The notes: generated by a model not told the origin, from the sequence alone. Positions 4,095 through 56,486 are shown, counted from the whole stretch's first letter. The stretch: 62,616 nucleotides of DNA, filler included, from Basidiobolus ranarum (GCA_040143965.1; 15 parts of 15 records of this genome joined end to end with filler, not necessarily neighbours in it); one strand, 5' to 3'. Translations and numbers: made by a program.

Positions 4095-4194
4095 NNNNNN
4101 NNNNNNNNNNNNNNNNNNNNNNNNNNNNNNNNNNNNNNTTAATTAATTAANNNNNNNNNNNNNNNNNNNNNNNNNNNNNNNNNNNNNNNNNNNN
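4095..4194. other. Artificial contig-joining spacer (N44-TTAATTAATTAA-N44). The same spacer recurs at 8288, 12477, 16666, 20850, 25033, 29215, 33397, 37577, 41755, 45932, 50107, 54278 and 58448
   Basis: Identical 100-nt blocks with stops in all six frames. The intervening segments fall from 4094 to 4069 nt without ever increasing, i.e. size-sorted contigs. Confidence 0.98.
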
Positions 4195-4289
4195 ACTCTT
4201 CCTTTCCTTTAACACAAACATATTCTTCTTGTCAGAACAGAAAGATAATAAAGACTCTTATTGCAACTTTATGATTGTTTTTGAAACTG

Positions 4290-5234
4290 TTAAAGTATTG
4301 CAATACCATCCTTTCCATCAAGGCCGTTCTTACCGTCGAGGCCATTCTTGCCATCTTTACCATCTTTTCCGGGAGGACCAGGGACAGGGATGATAGTTGT
4401 AGTAGGCTTTGGTGACGGTTCAGGTTTTCTGTAGGCTCTGGCAATCATGTGTGCGTCGGACTCAGCTTCTTCGTTTTGAAGTAGTTGACGTCTGGCTAAG
4501 GCAGCAGCATCTTTTCCATCCTTACCGTCTTTTCCGTCCTTGCCATCTTTTCCGTCTTTACCGTCCTTTCCTGGAGGTCCATCTTTTCCATCCTTTCCAT
4601 CTTTACCATCTACACCATCCTTGCCGTCTTTTCCATCTTTTCCATCCTTTCCATCTAGGCCGTTCTTTCCATCAAGGCCGTTCTTGCCATCTTTACCATC
4701 TTTTCCGGGAGGACCAGGGACAGGGATGATAGTTGTAGTAGGCTTTGGTGATGGCTCAGGTTTTCTGTAGGCTCTGGCAATCATATGAGTATCAGACTCA
4801 GTTTCTTGTTCGTTTTGGAGTAGTTGACGTCTGGCTAAGGCAGCGGCATCTTTTCCGTCCTTACCATCCTTTCCGTCCTTGCCATCTTTTCCGTCTTTAC
4901 CATCCTTTCCTGGTGGTCCATCTTTGCCATCCTTTCCGTCTTTTCCATCTACACCGTCTTTACCGTCTTTACCATCTTTCCCATCCTTGCCGTTAAGCCC
5001 ATCCTTGCCATCTTTGCCGTTTAATCCGTCCTTGCCATCTTTTCCCGGTGGTCCCGGTACTGGTGATGGTTGCGGAGAAGGGATGGGAGAAGGATTTGGA
5101 CGATACGCTCGAGCCTCTAGATTTTCATTGGATTTTACTACATGAAAGTTACTATTGCTGTTATTTTCAAGGACGGCACCGCTAACTAGAGTAGTGGCGG
5201 TAAGAAATAAAGCTACCAAAGCAAAGGATTTCAT
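4290..5234 (-). CDS. Secreted collagen-like repeat polyprotein A (KEX2-processed repeat protein-like): 2 complete and 1 partial (Gly-X-Y)23 units
   Basis: Signal peptide MKSFALVALFLTATTLVSG, pro-region ending NLEAR, then repeats of Pro-rich head + (GXY)23 + AAALARR + acidic spacer ending MIAR. TATAAATA on the - strand at 5464-5457. The 3' end may continue through an intron at 4306-4207. Confidence 0.9.
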   Translation of the reverse strand: MKSFALVALFLTATTLVSGAVLENNSNSNFHVVKSNENLEARAYRPNPSPIPSPQPSPVPGPPGKDGKDGLNGKDGKDGLNGKDGKDGKDGKDGVDGKDGKDGKDGPPGKDGKDGKDGKDGKDGKDGKDAAALARRQLLQNEQETESDTHMIARAYRKPEPSPKPTTTIIPVPGPPGKDGKDGKNGLDGKNGLDGKDGKDGKDGKDGVDGKDGKDGKDGPPGKDGKDGKDGKDGKDGKDGKDAAALARRQLLQNEEAESDAHMIARAYRKPEPSPKPTTTIIPVPGPPGKDGKDGKNGLDGKNGLDGKDGIAIL

Positions 5235-5732
5235 GATTGGTATAGCGGTATTCGAGACTTGGAATATTCAAAGTGGCAGTAATCAGTTCAATTTAAGTGT
5301 TTCGTTTATAGTATACGAAGACCAGTTGCTTATACTAATGGCGGCAGTAACCAGTAGTGGAGTAAGCAATGTTAGGATGATTGAAAGTCTAGTGAGTTCT
5401 ATGTAGATATAAGGGGAGCTCTTTTATTGATGTTCTAGTAAATGACCACTTACTGGTATTTATAGGAAGTGAAATGGTTTCCCCCTTGAAGTTATTGTTA
5501 ATTTAGGTTCTCCTCTGTAGATGCCATTAGTTGATATGCAATAGTGTTAGAGATTGTTTGTTCAGGTGAGATATAACAATTAGGCTAGATAATTGTTGGT
5601 CGGAGATCAATGACGATCATCCTCGTTAGGTTGAAGAGTATATATGTAGTATATTTGGACAGTGCAACATATTCAGTGAATATCCGATGTTTAGGTTAAG
5701 TGCCTTGACATTAAACACTCATTTTCAATTCA

Positions 5733-5796
5733 AGTGATTATTTGCTTCATTTCAGATAAGTGGTAATTTGCTTCATTTCAGAGTGGTCATTTGCTT
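5733..5796. repeat. Short imperfect tandem repeat (~23-26 nt, about 2.6 copies; core ATTTGCTTCATTTCAG)
   Basis: agtgattatttgcttcatttcagata / agtggtaatttgcttcatttcag / agtggtcatttgctt. Confidence 0.6.
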
Positions 5797-5893
5797 GGTA
5801 TATTTAGAATCGAGGTTAAACGTTTATTTTCTAATTTCTCATACAGGCATGATGAAGTTGATAGTATATAGGAGCGAGACACAAGTAATGACT

Positions 5894-6118
5894 TTAAATG
5901 CAAATGGTAATGACTTCCATGATACTTGGAATAGGGATTGACAGTGGTTCAGCACAGTAAGTTCCATCATCAGCCATCTTTAAATCATCAGCCTTGGGGT
6001 ATGGTCTTCTATAAGGTGGATTGGCTCGTTCTATCAAATGCTCACTCTTTGCAGTGTCGAGTACTGCTGACTGAGTAAATCCAAGAGAAAGGGCAAACAG
6101 AATGTAAAGTAATTTCAT
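5894..6118 (-). CDS. Small secreted prepro-peptide (74 aa, 2 Cys)
   Basis: Signal MKLLYILFALSLGFTQS, pro-region AVLDTAKSEHLIER (compare AVVE...EHLEAR in the neighbour), predicted mature part ANPPYRRPYPKADD...YCAEP...ITICI. Confidence 0.7.
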   Translation of the reverse strand: MKLLYILFALSLGFTQSAVLDTAKSEHLIERANPPYRRPYPKADDLKMADDGTYCAEPLSIPIPSIMEVITICI

Positions 6119-6852
6119 GACGAATATGAATATCAGAATACAAGATCATGTTACTGCCAATGATTATATAGAGGTCGTTTGGAAAACATATCCGTAACCT
6201 TGCTGTTCCCCTGAAACACACTTGTTGGAAAGAAATCTAGCAACATCTGTCTATCTTCACCCCTTGCAAGGTCGACTATTGATTATCATTTCAACTCCCT
6301 TATTGCCATCATTTTCCAATGCATTGTTGATCCCAAATTGTAGATCCTCATGTATTACATATTCAGATCTCCCTCTTTGACCTGCTTGCTATTGATTCTA
6401 ATCGGTTAGATTACCACATAAAATCTCTCCTTGCATTGACCAAATTAAACTCTAGTGAACAATGGTCAATGTAGTTCCCAATGGATTAAGTAGCACAAAA
6501 TCAGAACCACTTCGCTGTTGATCGGAAGACAAATCCAGTAGAAGGTGTAAGGGGCGCCTAAGATTAAGGAGATTCCTCAAAAGCGATGTCAACAAATATC
6601 ACATTGAACCACGAGGATATGACATAAATCAATCTTTGAAACCTTCTTAACCCACTTTTTCCACTGATATAAATAGTCCAAGAGATTCGTATTCATAAAG
6701 ACTATCGATTCACAATATTACTATCAATAGAAGTAGATTTTTTTCTTACTTTCTTTGATATATCCTCATAGATTCCCAATCCTCTTATAGATAATACCTT
6801 GACAGTAATACTGTTGAATAGAAAACAAGGGTTCATCTCGGAATTGAATACC

Positions 6853-8287
6853 ATGAAATCTTTCGCCTTGCTAGCTCTGTTTCTTACCGCTACAACTTTG
6901 GTTAGTGGTGCCGTGGTGGAAAATGACTTGGGTAACAATCCATTTCAGATAATAGATTCTAATGAACACTTGGAGGCCCGAGCTTACAAACCGCTCCCTT
7001 CACCAATGCCTACTACAACTATCATCCCTGTTCCTGGTCCTCCAGGAAAAGATGGTAAAGATGGCAAAAATGGCCTTGACGGTAAGAATGGTCTTGATGG
7101 AAAGGATGGAAAAGATGGTAAAGACGGTAAAGATGGTGTAGACGGTAAAGATGGGAAGGATGGTAAAGATGGGCCTCCAGGCAAGGACGGTAAAGACGGA
7201 AAAGACGGTAAGGACGGAAAAGATGGTAAAGACGGTAAAGATGCCGCTGCATTAGCTAGACGTCAACTACTCCAAAACGAAGAAGCCGACTCCGATGCAC
7301 ACATGATTGCCAGAGCTTACAGAAAGCCTGAACCATCACCAATGCCTAGTCCAACAAGCAGTCCAGTCCCTGGTCCTCCAGGAAAGGACGGTAAAGATGG
7401 AAAGGACGGCCTCAATGGTAAGGATGGGCTTAATGGAAAGGATGGCAAAGATGGGAAAGACGGCAAGGATGGTGTAGATGGTAAAGATGGAAAGGATGGT
7501 AAAGATGGGCCACCAGGCAAGGACGGTAAAGACGGAAAAGATGGCAAAGATGGAAAAGACGGTAAGGACGGAAAAGATGCTGCTGCCTTAGCCAGACGTC
7601 AACTACTCCAAAACGAACAAGAAACTGAGTCTGATGCACATATGATTGCCAGAGCCTACAGAAAACCTGAACCATCACCAAAGCCTACTACAACTATCAT
7701 TCCAGTCCCTGGTCCTCCAGGAAAAGATGGTAAAGATGGTAAGAACGGCCTCGACGGCAAAAACGGCCTTGACGGAAAGGATGGTAAAGATGGAAAAGAC
7801 GGCAAGGATGGTGTAGATGGTAAAGATGGAAAGGATGGTAAAGATGGGCCACCAGGAAAGGACGGCAAAGATGGTAAAGATGGCAAGGATGGAAAGGATG
7901 GTAAGGACGGAAAAGATGCCGCTGCCTTAGCCAGACGTCAACTACTCCAAAACGAACAAGAAGCCGAGTCCGATGTACACATGATTGCAAGAGCCTACAG
8001 AAAACCTGAACCATCACCAAAGCCTACTACAACTATCATTCCAGTCCCCGGTCCCCCAGGAAAAGACGGTAAAGATGGTAAGAACGGCCTCGACGGCAAA
8101 AACGGCCTTGACGGAAAGGATGGTAAAGATGGAAAAGACGGCAAGGATGGTGTAGATGGCAAAGATGGAAAGGATGGCAAAGATGGACCTCCAGGCAAGG
8201 ACGGTAAAGATGGTAAAGACGGCAAAGATGGAAAGGATGGTAAAGACGGGAAAGATGCCGCTGCCTTAGCAAGACGTCAACTACTCC
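6853..8287 (+). CDS. Secreted collagen-like repeat polyprotein B (KEX2-processed repeat protein-like): at least 4 (Gly-X-Y)23 units, 3' truncated by contig end
   Basis: The likely start is ATG 6853 (MKSFALLALFLTATTLVSG), not TTG 6799. Repeat period 333/339/339 nt. LARR and LEAR/MIAR bound each unit. TATAAATA at 6668-6675. Confidence 0.92.
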
Positions 8288-8387
8288 NNNNNNNNNNNNN
8301 NNNNNNNNNNNNNNNNNNNNNNNNNNNNNNNTTAATTAATTAANNNNNNNNNNNNNNNNNNNNNNNNNNNNNNNNNNNNNNNNNNNN

Positions 8388-8879: not shown

Positions 8880-11750
8880 CTATTTACCTAATTTCTACAC
8901 TTTCACTCAACTAATTATTATGCTTTCTCTTAAATCAAACTTATATCTTAATAATTAAAATTATACATTAGCTAAAGGCTTGGTTAAGCTGTCAGCAATT
9001 GTTTCTTCAGTAGGGCAATAGAGAAGTTCTATTATAGCAATCTCTATTGCTTCTGTAACAAAATGATGCCCAGTATCTATATGTTTTATTCTAGCATGAA
9101 ATCTAGGGTTTTTAGCTAATGGACTTGTTCTCTGTGATAGTGCCAGATTGTGCTGTATATATCATATTGGATAAAATATTCTAACATTTATGAGGCACAA
9201 TTTGGCACTATCCATCACCCTCTGGCATGATCAATTTCAATCACATTTACTTTAATACATTGATCCAAGGTCCAATAAATCCTGGCACAATGGAACCAGT
9301 CCAATGTATAAAACTTTAATTATCTTCAAATACAGTAATAGCACATTTTTGCAAGTATTCTAAGTCTATAAGTAACTTCTTAACCACATAGCTTGTTGGG
9401 TAGTAGCAGAGGCAGCCATGTACTCTGCTTCTGTAGTGGAAAGTGCTGTGGTTGGTTGCGTCTCACTATACCAAGTTATGGCCCCATTACCATAGGGAAA
9501 AGTGTACCCAGTTGTTGAACTTCAATCATCAAGATTTCTTCCCCAGTCTGCATCACTGGACCCTTGAAAAGTTTGTGCATCAGGAGAGGCAGAGTATTCC
9601 AGAACCAGATCTACAGTTCCTCTCACATACTGGAATATTTGTTTCCTGCAGTTTTGCACTCCGATCCTGGATTTTTGAGATATTGCCTGATAGTTTCCAC
9701 TGCCACAGCAATGTCTGGATGTGTTCCAACCATTGTATACATTAAACTACCCATCATGGATTGAAAAGGGAACTCCTGGCTTTGATTTGAGTCATTTTGG
9801 GTCAAATAGGATGATATTTTAATCAAGTTTGTATTGAGATCCATTCAGGTTGATGCAGGCTTGCTATTCTCCATATTGAGGCATTTTAGGATACCTAGGA
9901 CATATCTACACTGGTTCAACAAGAAATTCTTCTTGAGTTTATCTCTCTTGATTTGGATTCCAAGAAAATAACTTAATTCACCCATATCAGTCTTCAATAT
10001 TGTTTTGACAAGCTGCTTTGTGTCTGATTAAGTGTTTCTAGATTTTTTGTGGCTATGATCAAGTCATCAACATCTAGTGCCAAGATAAGGATGCTATTTC
10101 TGATTGTTTTGATGTTTATATTGTGATCTTCCATACATTTTTGGAATTCTTGTGATTCCAAATAGGTATCTATCTTGTTGTACAATGCCCTGGGTGCTTG
10201 CTTGAGTCCTTATAGCAATTGTTGCAGTTTACAGACCATATAATGGTGTTTTGGGTCAACAAATCCATCTGGTTGCTCCATATAGATCTCTTCTTCTAGA
10301 TTTTCATTTGGAAAGGCTGTTTTTACGTCCCTTTGATGTAAATCAAGGTTACAGATGGATGAAAGTGCCAGGATTGATCTAATGGAGCTAAACTTTGTTA
10401 CTAGAGCAAGAGTTCTATGAAAATCAACTCCTGGTGTCTGGGAATAACCTTTTGCAACTGATCTTGCTTTGTACCTTTCTATGGTTCCACCAGCTTGGTT
10501 TTTGACGTTGTATACCCATTTGCAACCGGTTGGCTTTCTCCCTGATGGTAGAGGGTTTAAAACCCATGTTTTGTTGTCCCAACCTGAAGGAAACTTATCA
10601 GACATTGCTTTTGGCCTTAATTTTGATTCTGGATATTCCAGAGCTTGATCTAGAGTCTGTGGCTGCTCACAGAGTGCTGCATAAGCATATACATCATCAT
10701 TGGAAGTGTTCCACCAGTTTCCTGGCATATTACTTCTTTTCAATGAGCTTCTGAGACCTGAATCCTCCTCTAATGTAATTGAGACTGATATTTCAGTTCA
10801 ATAGGGCTCATATACAGCTGAAAATTTTTCGGACACCTTCAGAATAGTGCTGATTGTGTTTCTAGATCAACGACTGTGATATGAGGTGCAAAATTCTCTT
10901 ATTCACCAAAAATTACATATCTCCCTTAACTAACTTCTGATCTTTGGTATCAAACACTCTGTAGGCCTTAGATATGACACAGTAACCAAGAAATGTGCAT
11001 TTTCTGCTTTTGGGATCCAATTTAGAGTGTCTTTGCACTGGAGTTAGGCACTATGCTGTGCAACCAAGGATTCCAAGATGATCCACACTTGTTTTTGATC
11101 CATACAGGGTGTGAAATGGAGTGGCATTTTGTAGCAATCTTGTTTGGCATCCGTTTTTGATATATACTGCAGTGGCAACAGATTCAGCCAACTTTTGGTA
11201 ATCTAACTTATGATCATGTAACATTGATCTTACCATCTCTACCATAAGCTTATTAGCACATTCTGCAACTCCATTTTGCGGCTGAATATAAGGTACAGTA
11301 GCTTGTTGCTTAATTCAATGTTTAGAACAAAAACTAGTACAGTCTTTTGAGCAGTATTCTCCACCATTATCATTACTGAATACCCTTATTTTTTGTGCTG
11401 ATTCTTTCTCTACTTTTGCTTTGTAGTGTTTGAATGTAGCTAAGGCTTCCAATTTTGTTTTGAGAAAGAATACCCATGTATATCTTGATTTGTCATTAGT
11501 AAAGGTCAAAAAGTACCTTTTCCCACCTAGTGCAACATTTTTCATGGGCCCACATTGGCCAAAATGAATCAGGGCAAAATTATGAGTGTGTTGGTTCTCT
11601 CCACAGCTTGAAAATGGCTGTCTATGATGTTTACATATAAGAAACCTTCACACAGATCCAATTTGGTGATATTTCCAATTTCTAATCCTGCAACAAGCTG
11701 ATATATATTGATATATGCTGCAAAGCTCCTGAATTAATGTACCATGTTTC
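8880..11750 (-). mobile_element. Degenerate Ty1/Copia pol (integrase, reverse transcriptase, RNase H) plus the first 20 nt of its 3' LTR
   Basis: Integrase GGKRYFLTFTNDKSRYTWVF/DNGGEY and VEMVRSML; RT GCKWVY..K....IERYKARSVAKGYSQTPGVDF, LHQRDVKTAF, LDVDDL; RNase H NPRFHARIKHID. Many stops and frameshifts. Confidence 0.93.
9121..9302 (-). mobile_element. 182-bp MITE, copy 1 (TIR GGACTTGTTC, 3-bp TSD AAT), inserted in Copia RNase H
   Basis: Ends ggacttgttc...gaaccagtcc flanked by AAT on both sides. Homologous to three other copies in the window. Confidence 0.85.
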
Positions 11751-12476: not shown

Positions 12477-14603
12477 NNNNNNNNNNNNNNNNNNNNNNNN
12501 NNNNNNNNNNNNNNNNNNNNTTAATTAATTAANNNNNNNNNNNNNNNNNNNNNNNNNNNNNNNNNNNNNNNNNNNNTGACACCAGATTGCCAAGAAGGGA
12601 TGGCACAGTAGATATGATGTCATAATCTAATAATAGAAGAGTTCCATATGCAGTGGATCAGTATGCCGAGATCAGAATCATGACACAAAGACCACCAAGT
12701 TTACTGATGGCAGGAGTGTCACCAATACATACAATGCTATTAGCTTTAATAAGAAATTCACCCATCTGAACCCCATTAGACAACCATTCAGATTCCACAA
12801 TCAAAGGCTCCAAGAAGCAATCTATAAGCACTGGTGATGTAGGTCCAGATATGATGGATAGCATAAGAATATTTTGACTCTTATACCATTCAGAAAGAGG
12901 AAGATTTAAGTTAATTAAAATTATTGGCCAGCAAGGCTTTCCAACCGTATATTTGTTTAGCAAGAAACCATCCAGAGCCAATGCAAATGCATGATCATAC
13001 TTGTTCACCAAGAAACCTTGACTTTTCAGATTCTGGTAGTGATATTCATCAAGTATATTGGTACTACCATCAGCTTTATGGTGAGTACCTTAATAGTAGA
13101 TCAATGAGCTATATTTGGGTAATTTCATCAAAACTTTAAGACAGGGAATCAACAGTATGTAAGACAAATATGAACAATATTTACCTGATTCAGTGATTGC
13201 CAATTGCATGCAAACAGTACATGAGTTCAGGTTTTTCAGATTGCCAGTGAAGCTAAACAACCATTTGGACATGAAGGGAGTTTAACTACTGAAGGATTAT
13301 ACATATGATGGACAAGTGTTTTCCACTTGTACCAGGTCTGTGGCAAGCAACAGTTGCCAATTAACTGTGGTAAATGTGTAAGAAAGCCAATAAATATCTG
13401 GTTGCTAAGATTGGATTCAACTCTCAACTCCTCAATATTCAAAGCTGCTTCCTTTACTGTAAGTGTTATCTTAGGTATAGCTCATCAATGTCATCAGCTG
13501 ATTCTGAGATGGTGTCACAGATGATTCATCAAGGGATTTACAAGATATCTCTGGTTATTAATTGCAACTTTAGTTTATTATAAGCTGTTTCTAACCAATT
13601 TGATTACACTAAGTTTAGCATCTAAAAATTTCAATGCCATTCAAAAAGTGTTCAAAACCTAAGTCAAAATTGGCTTCCAAGCCAAAGCCTGCTGGCACAA
13701 AAGGAAAAAACCAGCAGGAACACAGGACTTAATTGATGAGCAGTCTAGCAATCTACTAACCACTTTGGAAGGCATTACCATGCTGGAAACTAACTCAAGT
13801 AATGATGAAGCATTAATCAACTTACCAGATGTGTTCCTTTCCAATAATAGTGCAAGTGAAGAGATGGTAATACCCCAATTATGTAGTACATCAATAGTTA
13901 AGCAAAGTTCAACTAACACACAGTCAAGACCATCAACTTCCAAAAAGGCTACTTTGCACACTATTGAACAACTCTCCACAGAAAATTTGGATAGAATTAT
14001 TACAACAAGAGAATTGCAGGCAAACACCACAGCAATTTATATGTGATCAAAAGTAAAAGCTACAGAGTTACTATACAGGCTATAAAAGGTAATAATGCTG
14101 CAATATTGCAATTAATGCAGCATTTGGAAACAACTAGTCAACAGTTAGAAAGTCACTCAACACTGATAAAAGAACTTTAGAATGCTGCACTTGACCTACA
14201 GCCACATGCTCCTCCCTCTGTCCATTCTCATATGGGATTTCAATCCATCCCATACCATACATATGATTGTCACCATGACAATCTAGCAGTGTAGAATATG
14301 TGTTGAATCATTAAGCCTACACAACATCCTGTAATTGCTTGGACATATGAAAGTAGAAAACATATAGGAAAACTGGCAAACCAAAAGACTCTGAATGTTG
14401 GAGCTGCAATCACTTGCTCTGACAATGAGTGGTTTAACATTTTGGAAACTGTGCGGAATCTTGCCCATAATCATCTGGATTTGAGCTAATTTTGGAAAAA
14501 CCAAAAACCAGGTGTTACTGTGAAGGTTCTTGGCTTGTTTCATGTTGCCTATCCTGGGTTCTTGCCAGCAAATGGCAATTGGCCTAGTATAGTCCTATTC
14601 ATG

Positions 14604-30098: not shown

Positions 30099-31182
30099 AT
30101 GCTTGCAATCAAAGTACTGTTATGTATGATGACTTTCATCTTCCTACCTATCATCAGCATGGCCAAAAGGCTTCCAAACCGTTCAAGACGAAATAACGCA
30201 TACCAACAGCCTGTGGGTAAGTGGTTTAGTAGGATAATGATCATTATGCTTGAGAATACGGACTACGATGTTGCTTTGGAGGATCCTTACTTCACTCAAC
30301 TGGCTCAGGATGGGATGTTACTCGATAATTACTTCGGTGTAACCCATCCATCAAAGGGTAATTATATTGCTCAAATTTACGGCTCTTATGGGGATTTGAG
30401 AGATGATGGGCCAACAACGTAAGTAGCCCTTTTTGGAATTTTTACAAGAACCAATGATACTCACCACTATCAATATTTCCCGAACTGTTCTTACACTTTC
30501 TGCACATAGATTTCAGGGAGAGAGTCTAGTAGATTTGTTGGAAAATAGCCATCTTACCTGGAAGGCTTATCAGGAGGATTATCCCGGGGACTGTTTCCTT
30601 GGAAATACTGATATGTATTTTGAAAAGCATAATCCATTTATTAGCATGAGAAATATCAGGTGAGTTCAAGACAATCCTTTGTTGTTCATATTGTAAATTA
30701 GCCCATACCAATGAATCCCCTTGAAAAATAGAACCAACTTGGAGCGATGCGACCAAATTGTGAATGGAGAAGAACTGGAGACTGACATATTACTCAATAC
30801 ACTTCCTAATGTAATCTACTACACACCTAATACTTTAAATGATGGTCATGATACGGGAATCCAATACGCATCAAAGTGGTTACATGATTTTCTGGAGGAA
30901 AAGCTTGACGATTCAAATTTTATGGAGGATATGCTAGTAGTTGTCACCTTCGACGAAAGAGGTAGTTTTGAGACTCTCGACGATCCGGATAACAGAGTGT
31001 TAACCATATTGTTGGGTCCGCCCGTTGAGGAGGAGGATTTGATGCAAGTTACTGACAGTACGGAGTACGATCATTATAGCTTGTTACGAACAATAGAAGA
31101 GAACTGGTCATTAGGGACACTTGGTAGAAACGATTCCACGGCTATTCCATTTCAGAATTTAATCCCACTTATTTCAGGATAG
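30099..31182 (+). CDS. Secreted phosphoesterase-family acid phosphatase (PF04185-type), 3 exons
   Basis: Signal peptide; GKWFSRIMIIMLENTDY, GVTHPSKGNYIA, LTWKAYQEDYP, EKHNPF, NDGHDT, VTFDE, YDHYSLLRTIEENWSLGTLGRND. Introns 30419-30509 and 30660-30731. Confidence 0.92.
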
Positions 31183-43007: not shown

Positions 43008-43313
43008 TCATTTCCGTATGTTTGGTATGGATCTATTTATATCTGTGAGCCAGTTCCTACATTCTGTAGCCGTCATTTCCTCCCCTACCTCTCTACTACT
43101 GCCACCACCATTTCCTCCGTAATTTTCACTACTGCTACCACGTCCTTCTAATTCACCTCTACCGAGACCGCACCCACTATAACTATTGGTGTAGGCTCTA
43201 CCACCGCCTTCACCGGAGTAATCATTGGTATTGCAGTCACGTTTGAGAACGGCAGCGTCTGTCATGGCCAAAACTGAAACCGTCAACAAGATTTGGAGAG
43301 ATGTAGGCTTCAT
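43008..43313 (-). CDS. Small secreted Gly/Ser-rich protein with a Kex2 KR site (possibly truncated or a pseudogene)
   Basis: ATG 43313: MKPTSLQILLTVSVLAMTDA-AVLKR-DCNTNDYSGEGGG...GGNGGGSS. Confidence 0.55.
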   Translation of the reverse strand: MKPTSLQILLTVSVLAMTDAAVLKRDCNTNDYSGEGGGRAYTNSYSGCGLGRGELEGRGSSSENYGGNGGGSSREVGEEMTATECRNWLTDINRSIPNIRK

Positions 43314-44402
43314 ACTGAAGATAAAGCCCGAATTAGTGAACCCATGTAGGGAATCAGGCCAGCCATTGATAGTCGTTGGAAGTCTCAAGTAAGCATGGCC
43401 TCAGTTGAACTCAGGAGCTGCGTCTAGGGACGGTGGTATCACATGCTGATGCCAGGTAAATATAGCAGCGTCTCCGGAAGATCACTCACTACTCTTGAAA
43501 ATGCATGGTTTGAGAGAGGAAATCAAGCTCCCGGATAATTGGAGCACAATCGGCTTGTAGAATATATTATCCTTTCTGCCTACTGGAATTGTCATTCTAC
43601 CAGTCAATGAGAAAGCATAATGAAAGCATAATCCAGGCTCAGGAGAGAATCAAAAACCAAGGCATAGGGATCATCGAAATCAGTATGAATCAGATGATAA
43701 CGAACCAGAGTGATCCATTGCTTCAACGACACTTTTACCGCATATGGAATAGTTGTAAGGAGTATAGGCGAGTGATTGTTTCGTATGCTCATCAATGTTC
43801 TTGCCACTTCAAAAACCATTGTGGTGGGCTCAAACGTGCTACGTAATATACAACTAAGAATGCGTGTGGTGAAACACAGGAGGTTGTCCAAAGATTTGTT
43901 AATTCAACATATTGAGAGCGGCCCTAAACACTGCTGGTCTTGAGGTCCGGGGTAATAAAGAGTCCCTTTCCACTACGAAACATAATATTTTTGGTTGGTT
44001 TGAATATGTATGCCAATTGCTTTGTGATTAGTTTTTCTGGAAACAAGCTTAATAAACAAATGATTAGCTATGATTCGTTCACACCCAATCGCGCCGCTGG
44101 AGTCATGATTATTCCTCTGATGAGTTTTCTTTGGGTTAGTTTTCGGTTGATCATTACTACTTTGCTATCTTAGAATCGTTTGTTACCTTTTTTGTACAAC
44201 TCATCTGAATCAGAATATTCTGGTATCAGATGAGACTAAACCTTACCCCGCTAACCTTTTCTCCAGGAAAAAACAGGCGGAGAATTGGTCTGGGTTCATA
44301 TGCAAAGAGCCGGTGGATGGACCAGTTGTGCTAATAGTTCATTGAGTTCAGCTGTATAGGACCAGAAGAGCCTTCACTAGTGGACTATAAATGGTTACAT
44401 TG

Positions 44403-44470: not shown

Positions 44471-45000
44471 GATTCTATAATGAATTGGGTTACGTCTACT
44501 CAGCATACTCCAAGAAAATCAAACCTTTGTGATGGAATCATGAAAGTATATGTAAAACCAATGATTCACAATACCTTGGGCAACATATTACAGCTCTTGA
44601 GAAACATCATGTGAAAGAATGAAGCATCATAGCAGAACCAATAATACTCATGCTTATTCCGCTAAAACCATCATTCTTGATGTGATACAATACCAGTTTG
44701 ATGGAGTTAGATCCAGTAATGTCTACGCTTACAGCCAATACTGGTGGAAGATGCTCGGATATTGAGGAAATAGATCGTAGTATTTGCATTCTAATATAAA
44801 GGAATAAGTCATTGTGCAACTCCAGATAATATCTGGTGGCTGAGTAGATTTATGTAGAGTATCTTCAATACAATTTCTTGATCTTCTCCCGATCCTTCTC
44901 TCGATCAGCTTGGCCTCAAATCATCTCTTTTAATAAGCTCCGATTTCCTTTTTTCAAATCCATAGTCTTAAACTTCTTCCTTCTCCGCACAAAAACTGCC

Positions 45001-45931
45001 ATGAACCTCTCTGAAATCATCTGGAACATAGTGGTCCTCTCATGGGACGCCGCCCTCTTCTTCCTCAACATCATCCTGCCCAAACGCAAAGTTGGCCATG
45101 TCATTCCCAAGAACGCCAAAGGTCATGGAGGAATCTGGCCCGAATACGTCTCTCCAAAAGAAGGAGACTCACGTTCCGCCTGCCCAATGATAAATGCAAT
45201 GGCTAACCACGGAATCTTACCGCACGACGGTAAAAACATCTCCTTCCGAGAACTAGGTGACAAAATCCGAGCTACCTACAACTTCTCTCCCTCATTCTGC
45301 TTCTTTGTCCCCAAATTTGCTGCTAACTTTTTGCATAGGTCTTATTGGTCTGGTCGGTTTGATTTGGCCGAATTGAGTCTTCACAATGCGATTGAGCACG
45401 ATGGTTCATTGACAAGACAAGATTTTGCTCTGCAGCCTGATCAAGGGAAGCCTGATCTTAAATTGGTGCATTCCTTGTTGGCCGAGGCCACTGGAGAAAA
45501 CGGAAAGAAAATGACGATTCCGGATTTGTCGAGAGCGTTGGCGAAGAGGAGAGTAGACGCAAGGGCTAGTAATCCTCAGTATACGGAGAGCTTTTTTCAT
45601 AATGTGTTTGGAAGTTCCAAGTAAGTCACATGATCGAACAGAGTGACAGCGGAATTCATTGACTTACATTACAAAATAGCTCATCAACAATGCTTACCAT
45701 CTTTGGAGGCAGTAAGGACGATTTAACCCCAATGCTTACCGAAGAAAAATTTCCACCAAATTGGGAACCTCGAGTGCGTGAACAATTTGGGTTGACAATG
45801 GCGAAATTCAACTTGACTGTTCTCCCAGTAGAGCTGGGGGTAAACACTAGGAAGTACGAAGCTGAGAAAGCCCGTGCAAAGGTAGGAAATTCAATTCCTG
45901 AAGCTCCTTTAGAGTATAATGACCTGATTTT
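45001..45931 (+). CDS. Heme-thiolate peroxidase (chloroperoxidase / short unspecific peroxygenase family), 3' end at contig edge
   Basis: GDSRSACPMINAMANHGILPHDG (Cys heme ligand; ACP variant of PCP) and IEHDGSLTRQD. Intron 45621-45679 gives FGSSNSSTMLTIFGG...WEPRVREQFGLT. Confidence 0.92.
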
Positions 45932-51444: not shown

Positions 51445-52008
51445 TTATAGTACGCCAGTTACTTCGGAATTACGCGATGTAGTCTTCGATGTCGACCAAG
51501 AGCTACTACTCCACGAAGTAGTCCAGGCACCACCGACATTACCCGATGGTACTGTAGTAGGTGAACCCGTCACTTCACTTGGTGGAGAGCATTGTGATGA
51601 TGGTGTAGAAATGTTATTAGATCCGGTTGCTGATATGTCTGCATTACTAGGAGCAGATGAGCCGATGTCAGCACATGAGGTTACTGTTTGGGTTGGCCCT
51701 GAGGAAATGGAAGATTGTGATCCAGTTACCGAGGAACTCTCTGAGTTCGTTGACTGTGTACCTGACCCGACGGTACTGGAAGAATCAATGCTGCTAATTG
51801 AGCTAGATACTGGTGTAATTGTCTGTAGCGAGGCTGTATCTGATGATAGAACTGGCGTAACAATCTGACTAGTTGTGGTGACAGCAATCGACTCGGTTCT
51901 GGCAGTACTTGTAGCAATTGTACTATCATTGGAAGAAGGAGGAACAGCCATCCCATTGCCGACAACAATCATCGAGGCCAAAGTGATAAGGAATGTTGAA
52001 GAAACCAT
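51445..52008 (-). CDS. Secreted Ser/Thr-rich protein with Trp-rich tail, tandem paralog 2 (187 aa)
   Basis: ATG 52008 by alignment with paralog 1; signal peptide, mucin-like body, 2 Cys, C-terminal GGAWTTSWSSSSWSTS. Confidence 0.82.
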   Translation of the reverse strand: MVSSTFLITLASMIVVGNGMAVPPSSNDSTIATSTARTESIAVTTTSQIVTPVLSSDTASLQTITPVSSSISSIDSSSTVGSGTQSTNSESSSVTGSQSSISSGPTQTVTSCADIGSSAPSNADISATGSNNISTPSSQCSPPSEVTGSPTTVPSGNVGGAWTTSWSSSSWSTSKTTSRNSEVTGVL

Positions 52009-53476
52009 GATTTCGCTTGAGTGTATTTTGTTAACGTCTTTAGATATTCTTGGTACTTTTATATAACAAAAAGACATGACAATGTGTCCAAAGTTGAAAG
52101 TGACTATGACAAAATACCTTGGCAACTGAATTTTGACTGGTAACTACGCAATACCCCACTTAGCTACCAATCATGACTAACTTGAAATATTCTTTCAACC
52201 CACTAAGGAGTTTTAACAGCTCAGCAAACTAATGATTATGATTATATAGAATTGACAGCTGTCAAGTTGAGCAAATCAACCTCTCTTAATTGTTGGAATG
52301 CCCAGATAGGAATATCTTCAGCTGAAACGTCTCGAATAGCTAGACTGATCCATTTCACGCTTCTCTTAGCAGATCGGACATTACTACTCATCTATATTAA
52401 GTTAAAAGAGTATGTGAAACTAGGAAGATGGTGGCAACATAAAACTTCGAATCAGTTACATTGAAAAAATAACCGGCGAAACATATGGTTCTAAAGAAGT
52501 CCTGAATACAAAAGTTGAAATTTGATTAAAAGCTAATATTCTGATGGGGTGTAAGCAATATAAGATGTATTTAAAGGCTATCTTTCTATTTAAAGCGCGG
52601 GTAAAAGTTATATGTACGATATGAGATGAACATAATTTATAGCCAAAATATCGGCCTCTCAATAACCTTGGTTTCAATTCCCATTTACCACGAATTAATT
52701 CCCGATTTTGTTCCAATATTGATGGATGTTCTGATAACGCTGCATCAATTTAGGTCTTCATTATGCCTCCAAAAATGTGTCAATACGCCAGTATTCCAAG
52801 CTTTATACATGTACAGAATTTTCAACATCCACACTCATTTAACGAGACAGTTCCGAATGATTCAGCTTCAAGAGAATCGCTTCGTGATGGTTATCATTGT
52901 AGATATTTTAATCCTATTCCTCACTGATACAACCAAGCATTCCTATTTATTCAGAAATGGTAGTAGAGTGAAAAACTACCGCATGCCATATTTATTCCTA
53001 TTTCAGTGATTTATAACGTGGCTCCTGATCCGTATTAAATAGATAGCTAATTTTTTGAAGCCAGAAGCGGACTTAACTATACAGCATTCAGAGTATTCTT
53101 CTATTGTAGCACTCGATTTGATTTTTGCTCTTTCTTGAAATAACAAATTACACTGTAGCTATGCAGTGCAAAGTATAACATAAACTGCAATGGTATATGA
53201 GAAAATGTAGAGCAAAGCCTCAAAGCAACCTTTGAATAGGAAAGTGAGGATTCAACCAATCCATCATAAAGTCATTAAATAAGTCAAATAGTAATAAATT
53301 TTGACAAAATTCTCTTTATCAATCGAATGTAAGTCACGTTTCAAGCAATCAGATGTTTAGATGTCATGTTTACAAGTAATCAGGTGTTTATTGATTCAAA
53401 TGCAATAGTTACATTACAAGTTGGGAGAGCTACCAATGTATTACTGAAACAATACAGATCTCAATATGCCTTACAA

Positions 53477-54040
53477 TTATTGTACCCCAGTTGCTTTGGG
53501 ATTACGCGATGAAGTCCATGATGTCGACCAGGAGCTGCTACTACTCCATGAAGTAGTCCAGGCGCCACCGGCATTACCAGATGGTACTGCAGTAGGTGAA
53601 TCCGTCACTTCACTTGGTGGAGGGCATTGGGATGGTGTTGGGATACTATGCGATCCAGTTACTGATATGTCCGTATTATTGGGAATAGAAGTCCCAACCA
53701 CAGAACATGAAGCTACTACTGAGCTTGTTTCCGAGGAAATGGAAGATTCGTATACGATCATCGATGAACTTCCTATGTTGGTTGGTTGTGTTGCTGACCC
53801 GATAGCGCCAGAAGAATCAATGCTACTACTTAAGCTAGGTACTGCTGTGGTTGTCGGGAGTGAGGCTGTATTTGACGATAGAGCAGGCGTAACCATCTGA
53901 CTCGATGTGGTGGCAGCAATTGAATCGATTCCGCCAGTGCTTGTAGTCATTGTACCAGCATTGGAAGAAGGGGGAACTGCCATACCATTGCTGACAATAA
54001 TCATTGAGAGCAAGGTGATGAGGAGTGTTGATGGAACCAT
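53477..54040 (-). CDS. Secreted Ser/Thr-rich protein with Trp-rich tail, tandem paralog 1 (187 aa)
   Basis: MVPSTLLITLLSMIIVSNGMA signal; QCPPPSEVTDSPT; GGAWTTSWSSSSSWSTSWTSSRN. Confidence 0.85.
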   Translation of the reverse strand: MVPSTLLITLLSMIIVSNGMAVPPSSNAGTMTTSTGGIDSIAATTSSQMVTPALSSNTASLPTTTAVPSLSSSIDSSGAIGSATQPTNIGSSSMIVYESSISSETSSVVASCSVVGTSIPNNTDISVTGSHSIPTPSQCPPPSEVTDSPTAVPSGNAGGAWTTSWSSSSSWSTSWTSSRNPKATGVQ

Positions 54041-56486
54041 GTAGTTGTTCGAGTGTAATTTGTTAATATCTTTGGATTTTCCTGGTATTTTTATATGGAA
54101 AAAGAGATGACAATGTGGCCAAAGTCAAAAGTATTTATGACATAACTTGGCAACTAAATTTTGATTGGCAAGTATGCAAGATCTTACTTTGCATAAATAT
54201 CGAGATATTCCAAGTATTTTCATTTGCTGTATACCAAGATCCTATAAAATCTTAAAATACATGCTAAAAATCCCGACNNNNNNNNNNNNNNNNNNNNNNN
54301 NNNNNNNNNNNNNNNNNNNNNTTAATTAATTAANNNNNNNNNNNNNNNNNNNNNNNNNNNNNNNNNNNNNNNNNNNNACGTGTGCGTTACAAGGATATGG
54401 ACATTAGCCACGAGTGATTTGAGAAGCGGAACGTACCGTGGCTTCCACCCAATACCTGCGATTGAGCTTTTGACTGCTATAATCTTTAGAGGTGGTTCCA
54501 TAAAGAGAAGAAGAGAAACAGCAAATTGACCTCTTTTTTAGTTTACAGATAGAAAAGTTTGTTAAGCATGTGCTCTCAAAAAATATGACGAGTTATAGCA
54601 ATGAATTGCACAATTTGTCTACAATTGTTTTGTTCATTTATCTCATAGTCATCTTATTACGTTTGCTTAGGTAGTGGCTTAGCTCAGCTGGATTTGACAG
54701 ATTCATTTGTGACAAGGTACAAGAATGAATGCTAACATGAGAGTGTGATGGGTATATAATAAATGGTCATAAATGACGACGTTCTGTCTATATGCATATG
54801 ATTAACAAACAAAGGTGCCCACTGCTCTATAATCTCTAGATGAGGTTCCATAAAGAAAAGGAAGAGAAAAATTTATTATAACTTTTTCTTAAATACATCA
54901 CTGATATAGTCTTTTAGCAGAATATTTTTGTTTAATGATGCCAACAATAATGTCTGAAAAAGAACCGGGTTTTGTCTCAATAAGAGCAAATCATCTCATT
55001 TTTTGTGTTGTACACGTCTCAGAAGAAAAGGTGAATCGTCTAATTTTAATTTTCAGATCATCTCAAATTGGATTTCCAATCGTTTCATTTAGAGTAAAAC
55101 ACTGTATAGAAGTTTCCATATTATTAAATTGTTATCATGCTATTTGAGATCTACAGAATTTCAACCATTACGAATTATGCTAAGAGAATTTCCATACTCC
55201 CATACCCCCTCAAGTAGGTCACATGCAACTGGTGAGGTTCAGCATCATTGGCTAGAGGATGTTTGTAAAGCATTGAAAAAAAAGCTCAAGTTGCAGTGTA
55301 TGTGCACTCGCCCGTCTGTCCTGAAAAAGATAGGCGAGGTCCAAATGATCGCTCCTAGCTGCTGATTTGAACATTACTCAGGGTTGAGCATTCATTCGCA
55401 AGGTACTGCTGCTGTAAGGTGCTGACAAGCATGTTGGTAATATTGAATCAGGTTCTGTCTCCTTTATGCTTGAAGGGTCTAATTCATATCCAACTCTACG
55501 GCATGTAGCCAACCTCACCTACGCTGAACTCTGTTTATACAGAGTGGCAGTGCTTGATTGTAAAACTTTGTTAGTGACTCGGGTTTAATATTGGATCATA
55601 CAGCTTCTTGCATGTGGAAGCTTTTGTCGATGGTACAAATCAGGGCATCTGGTAATTTCCTATGTTCTATTCCAATTTTGTCGGTCATCAGCACTCCTGA
55701 AGCCAATGGAATCCCGAGTAGACGAATTAAAAAATCTTAAGGTTACGATTTTGTCGTCTCTCGTAGATATAAAAGTTTCCATATTATTAAATTGTTATCA
55801 TGCTATGTAAATCATCTATAGATAAATTGCCATTTGCATACATCCTTTGTTGATTTGACGGCAGCTTAAATATTTATTTATGTCATTTTGTGTTTCAATA
55901 AATGCTCATGTAAGAATTGAGTGGTTATGCCATTGCTTGCCGATACTAAATTATCACAATTGGACATTCTTAAAAGATAATTAATGTATTATTTGATTGG
56001 GAATTGTTAATAAACTTACGGATTGTTGTTTGAACGAACCAACTAAATATTGAAATAAAGAACTGCTGGATTCTGACTTTTCCATCAGCTCCTTGATTTC
56101 TTGAGCAACAATTCTGATACTGTTCTGTCCATTCTCTTTTCCTCTCTACAAATTTCTAAACGTCCTCCGTTTTGAAAAAATCTAGTTGGTGTAGCGTCAC
56201 CGCTATTCTTTATGGTTGTAATTGATTACAAACAAGCTGATTTTTACTGACCTAATTGTTTATTGTTTACTATCAAATACCTTTTTCTATTATCAGTCCA
56301 TTTATTAAGCGTGTTTTACCTCTCATACCACTAAAGTACACTCCTCTATTTCTCTCATTACTAGTCATCTTTTTAGCTCTACATAGTTAATTTTAACAGC
56401 CAGCAGCCTTTATTTTTCATTTCATTAGTCATTTTTTGCCACTTTGAGCTTTCCCACCCAGCTTTATATTTCCAATCTTCACCAGA

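Follow-up and report, generated by a model that had tools for sequence, protein, structure and literature searches.

Two divergently oriented genes, here called A and B, lie on one contig of a 62,616-base stretch of DNA (the window), and both encode tandem collagen units bordered by basic residues. The locus raises the question of whether the gene products are polyproteins that a kexin-type convertase would cut into many near-identical mini-collagens, as fungal KEX2-processed repeat proteins (KEPs) are cut into peptides, or whether the collagen units act in some other form. A preliminary description of the locus had favored processing. Open reading frames (ORFs), Tandem Repeats Finder, and Pfam agreed with its account of two divergent genes, each with a signal-peptide-like start, a pro-region ending in LEAR, and collagen units of 111 to 113 aa. 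Sequence and structure modeling together lead us to give an even chance to the proposal that genes A and B encode KEP-like polyproteins releasing hydroxyproline-poor homotrimeric mini-collagens along with acidic 17- to 18-mers.

Two divergent genes encode tandem collagen units

Genes A and B lie on opposite strands, with transcription directed outward from a shared 1.6-kb intergenic region, and are best described as diverged, divergently transcribed paralogues. Their parts are as follows.

4195..8287, no strand: contig holding both collagen genes, 4,093 bp, second piece of the window, bounded by N runs and the TTAATTAATTAA linker
5234..4290, minus strand: gene A, 314 aa plus stop; Pfam Collagen PF01391, E 2.3e-25
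5234-5178, minus strand: gene A signal-peptide-like residues 1-19
5177-5109, minus strand: gene A pro-region ending in LEAR
5108-4773, minus strand: unit A1, 112 aa
4772-4437, minus strand: unit A2, 112 aa
4436-4293, minus strand: unit A3, cut, 48 aa
5235..6852, no strand: divergent intergenic region, 1.6 kb
6853..8287, plus strand: gene B, 478 aa, open; Pfam Collagen PF01391, E 9.9e-52
6853-6909, plus strand: gene B signal-peptide-like residues
6910-6981, plus strand: gene B pro-region ending in LEAR
6982-7314, plus strand: unit B1, 111 aa
7315-7653, plus strand: unit B2, 113 aa
7654-7992, plus strand: unit B3, 113 aa
7993-8287, plus strand: unit B4, cut, 98 aa

In both genes, the N terminus, read by eye, consists of MK, about 15 hydrophobic residues, and V-S-G|A, and is followed by a pro-region of 23 to 24 aa. 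Collagen was the sole Pfam family above the cutoff (27.2 bits) in either product. Each full unit is composed of a head of 18 to 19 aa, a collagen tract of 69 aa, and a tail of 24 to 25 aa, for a total of 111 to 113 aa; the tail of the cut unit B4 is 10 aa long. Every unit opens with AY, after which the head continues with one or two basic residues and a Pro/Ser/Thr-rich segment. The collagen tract measures exactly 69 aa and forms an uninterrupted (Gly-X-Y)23 in all six complete tracts; the 23 triplets of unit B3, for instance, are 16 GKD, 2 GPP, 2 GKN, 2 GLD, and 1 GVD. The tail starts with AAALARR and goes on as an acidic stretch (the spacer) with Gln as its first residue and HMIAR as its last ones. 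Unit B3 provides an example of both parts.

7711..7917, plus strand: collagen tract of unit B3, 69 aa, (Gly-X-Y)23
7918..7992, plus strand: tail of unit B3, AAALARR with a putative cut after RR, then the acidic 18-mer Gln...MIAR with a second putative cut, after which the next unit opens with AY

Tandem Repeats Finder detected two arrays with a period of 339 nt, one of 3.8 copies (89% matches, score 1995) and one of 2.0 copies (91% matches, score 1143). The repeat and the Collagen matches are far beyond chance. Matches in the PDB were generic collagens and were limited to the collagen tract, with best stretches that fell inside unit residues 15 to 90 in all 25 rows. After removal of RR, the predicted rod chain of unit B3 has 93 aa, a mass of ∼9.2 kDa, and an isoelectric point (pI) of 8.1; its predicted spacer has 17 to 18 aa, a mass of ∼2 kDa, and a pI of 4.1 to 4.4.

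The preliminary description overlooked that both genes are cut short on this contig. Position 8287, taken there as the end of gene B, is the end of the contig and is followed by a linker; the reading frame is open at this point, and the number of units and the C terminus of gene B lie beyond it. Gene A stops in mid-unit: it ends as ...GKDGIAIL-stop inside the third collagen tract, 95 nt from the other contig end, and the unit-to-unit homology of gene A breaks off exactly at ...GKDGIAIL. The sequence would be compatible with either a real truncation or an assembly breakpoint. A 20-nt "intron" at this end of gene A was rejected as too short. When gene B was compared with the window by tblastn, six high-scoring segment pairs were obtained, one of them off the contig (E 5.4), and no additional copies were found in the window. 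Among the 76 inverted pairs, the arms of the 25 longest all lie in the coding repeats, at 4304-5063 or 6988-8287.

Unit borders carry candidate kexin sites

Three types of junction separate the parts of the precursors. LEAR|AY joins the pro-region to the first unit in both genes. LARR|Q ends the collagen part and is invariant in the six of six tails that reach this point, with RR encoded as AGA CGT in all tails. MIAR|AY ends the spacer and is invariant in five of five complete tails. Across the three types, the residue at P1 is always Arg and that at P4 is Leu or Met. There is one RR per unit, and the RR-to-RR spacing is 111 to 113 aa.

In the account of Kex2 specificity given in PMC8528282, Arg is required at P1, Lys or Arg is preferred at P2 with wide variation, and Leu or another aliphatic residue is preferred at P4; LxxR served there as an expanded Kex2 search motif. 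LEAR and LARR match LxxR literally, and MIAR would match it if Met is taken as aliphatic-like. The earlier suggestion that the xxAR sites are candidates for cleavage is thus better grounded than the preliminary description could show, since LEAR, LARR, and MIAR share a P1 Arg and a P4 that is Leu or Met, in keeping with LxxR (PMC8528282). The eight residues that end the pro-region (S-x-x-H/N-L-E-A-R) resemble those that end the spacer (S-D-x-H-M-I-A-R), which gives the pro-region the look of a degenerate spacer, an arrangement usual in alpha-factor-type precursors. The spacer begins with Gln directly after RR and could likewise start with pyro-Gln, as do several basidiomycete (Agaricomycetes) KEP peptides described in PMC9769878, a source that also covers the order of events for KEX2, KEX1, and STE13 and the release of peptides at a single Arg. 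The RK of the most frequent head (AYRKP) was considered as a further cut site and rejected: unit B1 has AYKP and unit A1 has AYRP, and Pro follows.

The collagen tract is under strong purifying selection

We then compared the units with one another. For the six units whose collagen tract is complete, identity ranged from 77 to 95% for DNA and from 87 to 100% for protein; the cut unit A3 was 61% identical to A1 in DNA and 72% in protein. Units A2 and B4 encode identical protein (100%) from DNA that is 89.5% identical. With differences of 5 to 23% in DNA, the units are neither recent nor collapsed copies.

Nei-Gojobori counts over the 10 pairs formed by the five full units gave proportions of synonymous (pS) and nonsynonymous (pN) differences of 0.549 and 0.024 for the collagen tract (ratio, 0.043), 0.286 and 0.032 for the tail (ratio, 0.112), and 0.542 and 0.188 for the head (ratio, 0.347). 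The pS of the collagen tract may be too high if out-of-register conversion has moved synonymous variants between the 9-nt GKD repeats; selection at the protein level is nonetheless required because the tract has an exact length, its non-GKD triplets hold fixed positions, and its frame shows no damage. The pre-pro regions of genes A and B differed with a pS of 0.66 and a pN of 0.14. In the 15 pairs of collagen tracts, codon position 3 took 356 of the 402 pairwise differences, and the variable sites were third positions in 46 of 69 codons, first positions in 6 of 69, and second positions in 2 of 69. Between the tracts of B1 and B4, 27 of 27 differences were synonymous, a result with a chance of ∼4e-19 under a simple binomial. 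The third-position pattern settles the coding frame against the shorter antisense ORFs. Together, these counts point to very strong purifying selection on the collagen tract, and the genes are real as far as the sequence tells. The preliminary description gave the spacer no function, although the spacer (ratio, 0.11) is more conserved than the head of the presumed product (ratio, 0.35).

Modeling supports a homotrimeric triple helix

To evaluate trimer formation, three copies of unit B3 were modeled in three runs, alongside three controls, and scored by ipSAE. The B3 trimer reached 0.45, compared with 0.02 for the best of the three controls; among proteins of solved structure, the mark for this score is attained by 21 of 30 that form pairs of one chain, compared with 0 of 23 that are single chains. 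Contacts agreed among the runs by at least 97%, and the predicted local distance difference test score (pLDDT) of the partners was at least 81. The modeled interface spans residues 12 to 90 of 113, with the chains parallel and staggered by one residue, and includes the whole tract and the last residues of the head; the tail lies outside it. The model supports a parallel, staggered homotrimeric triple helix. As the interface ends at residue 90, the proposed cuts at 94-95 and 113 would fall on free ends. The tail was also considered as a coiled-coil trimerizer; it displayed no convincing heptad register and is absent from the modeled interface.

A GKD-based triple helix lacking hydroxyproline had been called plausible from the outset, and published data on a streptococcal collagen agree. 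Scl2.28, which is low in Pro and high in Lys and Asp, has a melting temperature of 35.6°C at neutral pH, which falls to 24.2°C at pH 2.2 (PMC8968730), and GKD-GKD triplets close its collagen domain (PMC3391134). By analogy, a hydroxyproline-free, Lys/Asp-rich collagen appears feasible here.

The non-collagen parts have no relatives in the libraries searched

The preliminary description had called for a search with the non-collagen linker as a means of finding a described family. Run over protein and contig libraries, this search returned no described family. When the tail plus head was used to query 5.8 billion clusters in a word-indexed search, no length class gave a credible match: the near-length class yielded three matches at E≤10 among 976 candidates, all of them unrelated collagen or phage-like proteins, and neither the 650 candidates of the longer-length class nor the 619 of the shorter-length class included one at E≤1. 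An exhaustive profile search of 1,835,955,588 representatives produced a single match, P0007, which we rejected as spurious, this protein being an unrelated repeat protein of 1,656 aa in which the same 19 residues were matched repeatedly. By eye, the repeats of P0007 are ∼80 to 90 aa long and each contains ...RELLKDSPE.P.D.HSLAR, a superficial echo of the ...HMIAR of the spacer. Back-translated scans gave 329 pattern matches in JGI metagenome contigs, 248 in viral contigs, and 251 in prokaryotic genome contigs, 0 of which were confirmed in each case. These searches covered representatives at 50% identity, among which a relative could be masked in a generic collagen cluster, and unannotated fungal genomes lay outside them. 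Within this scope, the non-collagen parts appear to be without relatives in the libraries searched.

The gene A product has an identical entry, letter for letter, in the Protein Atlas, which offered no usable neighbor for it; the exact product is absent from a collection of 15 billion proteins. In the literature searched, which left most subscription journals outside, no account of a fungal tandem array of collagen units open to cleavage was found, and the string GKDGKDGKD had no match in the full texts searched. The word "collagen" is absent from the main text of the KEP surveys PMC6339444 and PMC7329392, their supplementary lists being outside the scope of this search.

The precursors resemble KEPs in layout and would differ in cargo

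Genes A and B share several properties with KEPs such as alpha-factor precursors, Ustilago Rep1, Candida Ece1, and dikaritin precursors: a signal-peptide-like start, a pro-region whose end is spacer-like, and near-identical tandem units. Basic sites at both unit borders and possible trimming by Kex1 are further likenesses (PMC9769878, PMC6339444). With respect to a requirement of at least three near-identical tandem repeats, gene B has three full units and a cut one, and gene A has two full units and a cut one. Dibasic separation is provided by RR in six of six tails; the second border is the nondibasic AR, which fits LxxR. Repeats in the 2020 survey PMC7329392 were limited to 100 aa, a length that our units exceed at 111 to 113 aa; this ceiling is a screening cutoff rather than a biological definition. 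Thus, the KEP layout with units flanked by basic sites, as first proposed, held for the arrangement of the sites and fell outside the survey limit for unit length. Unlike in KEPs, the cargo here would be a collagen chain of 91 to 93 aa, expected to form trimers, whereas alpha-pheromone peptides have 9 to 24 aa (PMC6339444), and two of the three site types are LxxR or MxxR instead of dibasic.

Other known systems match in part. In the Kex2-processed pro-domain (K2PP) effectors, as described in PMC8528282, the pro-region that follows the signal peptide also ends in LxxR (LEAR in our genes); it is disordered, and these effectors are single-domain proteins with one cut, whereas here the motif recurs at every unit border. 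The streptococcal proteins Scl1 and Scl2 likewise have a hydroxyproline-free, Lys/Asp-rich tract with GKD triplets (PMC8968730, PMC3391134). In contrast to our genes, they carry a single long collagen domain, an N-terminal V trimerization domain, and a wall anchor, with neither an array nor convertase sites. In the products of genes A and B, Pfam recognized only Collagen, with the uninterrupted Gly-X-Y pattern that the PF01391 family model describes; the N terminus is signal-peptide-like and followed by the pro-region of 23 to 24 aa, and the C terminus of gene B lies beyond the contig. Among fungi, Metarhizium Mcl1 is a collagen-like coat protein of the cell surface (PMC7348879, PMC11105155), and Entomophthora muscae is enriched in secreted PF01391 proteins as well as in kexin-like peptidases (PMC11105155). 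These proteins resemble ours in being fungal, collagen-like, and secreted or at the surface; they differ, in a comparison by description only, in that the passages concerning them in these two sources describe no cleavable tandem array. As the linker search gave no relative, Mcl1 and the E. muscae PF01391 proteins are at most functional analogues. In animals, nematode polyprotein allergens and profilaggrin also produce many identical folded products from one transcript, with furin or kexin sites at the unit borders; they share no sequence relationship with our genes and have units other than collagen. Kexin processing also occurs in the cuticle collagens of nematodes, which are made as single-unit precursors.

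Proposed release of mini-collagens and the alternatives

Were the precursors processed, the signal peptide would be removed upon entry into the endoplasmic reticulum (ER). Three parallel precursor chains would then come together, and a triple helix stabilized by Lys and Asp would form over each (Gly-X-Y)23 tract and the head residues next to it, as in the model, with little or no need for hydroxyproline. In the late Golgi, a kexin-type convertase could cut after the P1 Arg of LEAR, LARR, and MIAR, as motif conservation suggests, and a Kex1-type carboxypeptidase could trim the C-terminal RR, by analogy with other precursors. Each unit would thus yield a chain of 91 to 93 aa within a ∼20-nm rod of pI ∼8, and an acidic peptide of 17 to 18 aa, of pI ∼4.1 to 4.4, whose N-terminal Gln could cyclize. 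A role for the rods in an extracellular coat, adhesive, or matrix seems likely and is the weakest step of the scheme. Since helix formation must precede a cut made in the late Golgi, the conserved tail may serve as a miniature removable propeptide, a role that would account for its higher conservation relative to the head. A fuller version, which we regard as possible but doubtful, would have a fungus apply the alpha-factor strategy to a structural biopolymer: precursors would zip up in the ER and kexin would free identical ∼20-nm rods, the spacer being either a removable element similar to a C-propeptide or a second product with pyro-Gln. Collagen has reportedly been found in fungal fimbriae (by Celerin et al. 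in 1996); that genes of this type are its source has much lower odds.

Several observations weigh against the release of mini-collagens, and some of them suit a different use of the same units, namely an intact modular fiber, secreted or wall bound and uncleaved, in which short linkers, helical or hinge-like, and O-glycosylated segments rich in Pro and Thr would separate the triple helices and the Arg residues would serve structure or charge. RR is the sole canonical dibasic site of each unit; the AR sites depend on the expanded motif, and the specificity account of PMC8528282 does not list Met for P4. The linker is strongly conserved, above the head of the presumed product (0.112 versus 0.347), which suits a functional element more than a throwaway linker. 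The end of gene B is missing, so that a wall anchor or terminal domain is possible, and the passages of PMC7348879 and PMC11105155 devoted to Mcl1 present it as a coat protein of the surface and make no mention of a cleaved array. On the modeling side, the calibration of the score came from two copies, not three; for eukaryotes it recovered 17 of 29 solved pairs and 1 of 7 that were without an older solved relative; the trimer may have passed through memory of the abundantly solved collagen helices; and no trimerization domain is evident in the unit sequence. We nevertheless hold the intact fiber to be unlikely. The same junction, with an aliphatic P4, Arg at P1, and AY at P1'-P2', also closes both pro-regions, which structure alone would hardly explain; the tail has no coiled-coil register and lies outside the modeled interface; and RR and LxxR exposed in the late Golgi are normally cleaved in fungi (PMC8528282, PMC9769878).

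Cleavage could also serve the spacer rather than the collagen. According to this alternative, which overlaps with the release of mini-collagens, the acidic 17- to 18-mer that starts with Gln and ends in ...HMIA(R) would be the bioactive core peptide of a KEP, and the collagen would be a carrier, a scaffold, or a second product. The peptide is conserved, its length is nearer to the 9 to 24 aa of alpha-pheromones (PMC6339444) than that of the 91- to 93-aa chain, and its Gln follows RR directly, as in the pyro-Gln KEP peptides of Agaricomycetes (PMC9769878). However, the collagen tract is more constrained (ratio, 0.043; 69 aa in six of six tracts) than would be expected of a mere spacer, and the peptide has no relative in any library searched, so we find this alternative distinctly improbable. 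Hardly credible, in our view, is a nonfunctional pair arising as an assembly artifact, a decaying pseudogene array, or contaminant DNA. The contig is indeed short, with both ends in or beside the repeat, gene A stops in mid-unit, gene B runs into the contig end, and the 15-billion-protein collection contains no exact match to the gene A product. Against this stand the 5 to 23% divergence of the units in DNA, which argues against collapsed copies, the overwhelmingly synonymous differences, which exclude neutral decay, and an intergenic GC content equal to that of the rest of the window; moreover, the gene A product is present letter for letter in the Protein Atlas, and a neighboring ORF is deposited in NCBI/UniRef.

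If the units are released as mini-collagens, genes A and B would represent the first KEP-type precursor with a folded, oligomeric structural cargo in place of a short peptide, and they would give a eukaryote a natural means of making short collagen rods, all of a defined length, that does not depend on hydroxyproline. Such a system would bear on the folding of collagen-like proteins that have no classical trimerization domain, on the coating of fungal surfaces (coat, adhesion, and immune masking), and on the design of recombinant collagens. It would also expose a blind spot of published KEP screens, created by the 100-aa ceiling and a dibasic-only definition of sites, and a mini-collagen array would come as a surprise to the fields of fungal secreted peptides and collagen folding.

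Genomic context and other features of the window

The window is made up of 15 unrelated contigs ordered by size, from 4,094 down to 4,069 bp, and is split into these pieces by 28 runs of exactly 44 N that are paired around TTAATTAATTAA. The artificial linkers are placed as follows.

4095-4194, 8288-8387, 12477-12576, and so on: artificial linkers, N44-TTAATTAATTAA-N44

As the joined contigs are unrelated, gene order across the N44-TTAATTAATTAA-N44 linkers is meaningless, and a finding that extends from one contig into the next is an artifact. The GC content of intergenic DNA is 0.362 on the collagen contig and 0.365 in the rest of the window, and on this basis the contig appears to belong to the genome and not to a contaminant. 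The two collagen genes are the only ATG-initiated ORFs of at least 250 aa in the whole window, a scarcity that would fit an intron-rich eukaryote. The Pfam families on the other contigs and one Protein Atlas lead suggest that the DNA is probably of fungal origin. This lead comes from the peroxidase ORF, for which the Atlas gave two clusters with Basidiomycota as the majority of their known members (scores of 0.92 and 0.91) and a third in which Ascomycota prevail (0.90).

Within the intergenic region shared by genes A and B, the two promoter sides were compared and had no mutual similarity. The region contains a small ORF.

5894..6118, minus strand: ORF of 74 aa that opens like a signal peptide and continues with ...HLIER|AN and YRR; TATA-like word upstream

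This ORF corresponds to a deposited NCBI/UniRef protein, from a 4,093-nt contig, in the 15-billion-protein collection and gave no match in a Pfam scan. A place in the family as a third member is doubtful, the BLASTP comparison with the pre-pro region (E 0.54) not being significant; the ORF could instead encode a small secreted protein with no relation to the collagen genes.

Rfam and tRNA scans of the window returned no match. Pfam families on the other contigs were Peroxidase_2, Phosphoesterase, short-chain dehydrogenase, SPRY, DUF202, and copia-type reverse transcriptase, three of them in the following exon-sized ORFs.

44848-45624, plus strand: heme-thiolate peroxidase, Peroxidase_2, E 2.4e-41
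30715-31182, plus strand: Phosphoesterase, E 2e-19
10210-10797, minus strand: copia-type reverse transcriptase, E 1.8e-29

Further ORFs of the window may encode secreted proteins.

51445-52143 and 53477-54124, minus strand: Ser/Thr-rich ORFs of 232 and 215 aa, stop to stop
43008-43400, minus strand: small ORF with a hydrophobic N-terminal stretch, then ...AVLKR|D and a Gly-rich body; no match in Pfam

The two Ser/Thr-rich ORFs are alike and lie on the same contig with ∼2 kb between them, each overlain by a long antisense ORF. A Pfam scan of the one at 51445-52143 gave no match; the two may be paralogues in tandem, encoding a mucin-like protein that is secreted or located in the wall. The ORF at 43008-43400 may encode a further small secreted protein with a dibasic pro-site.

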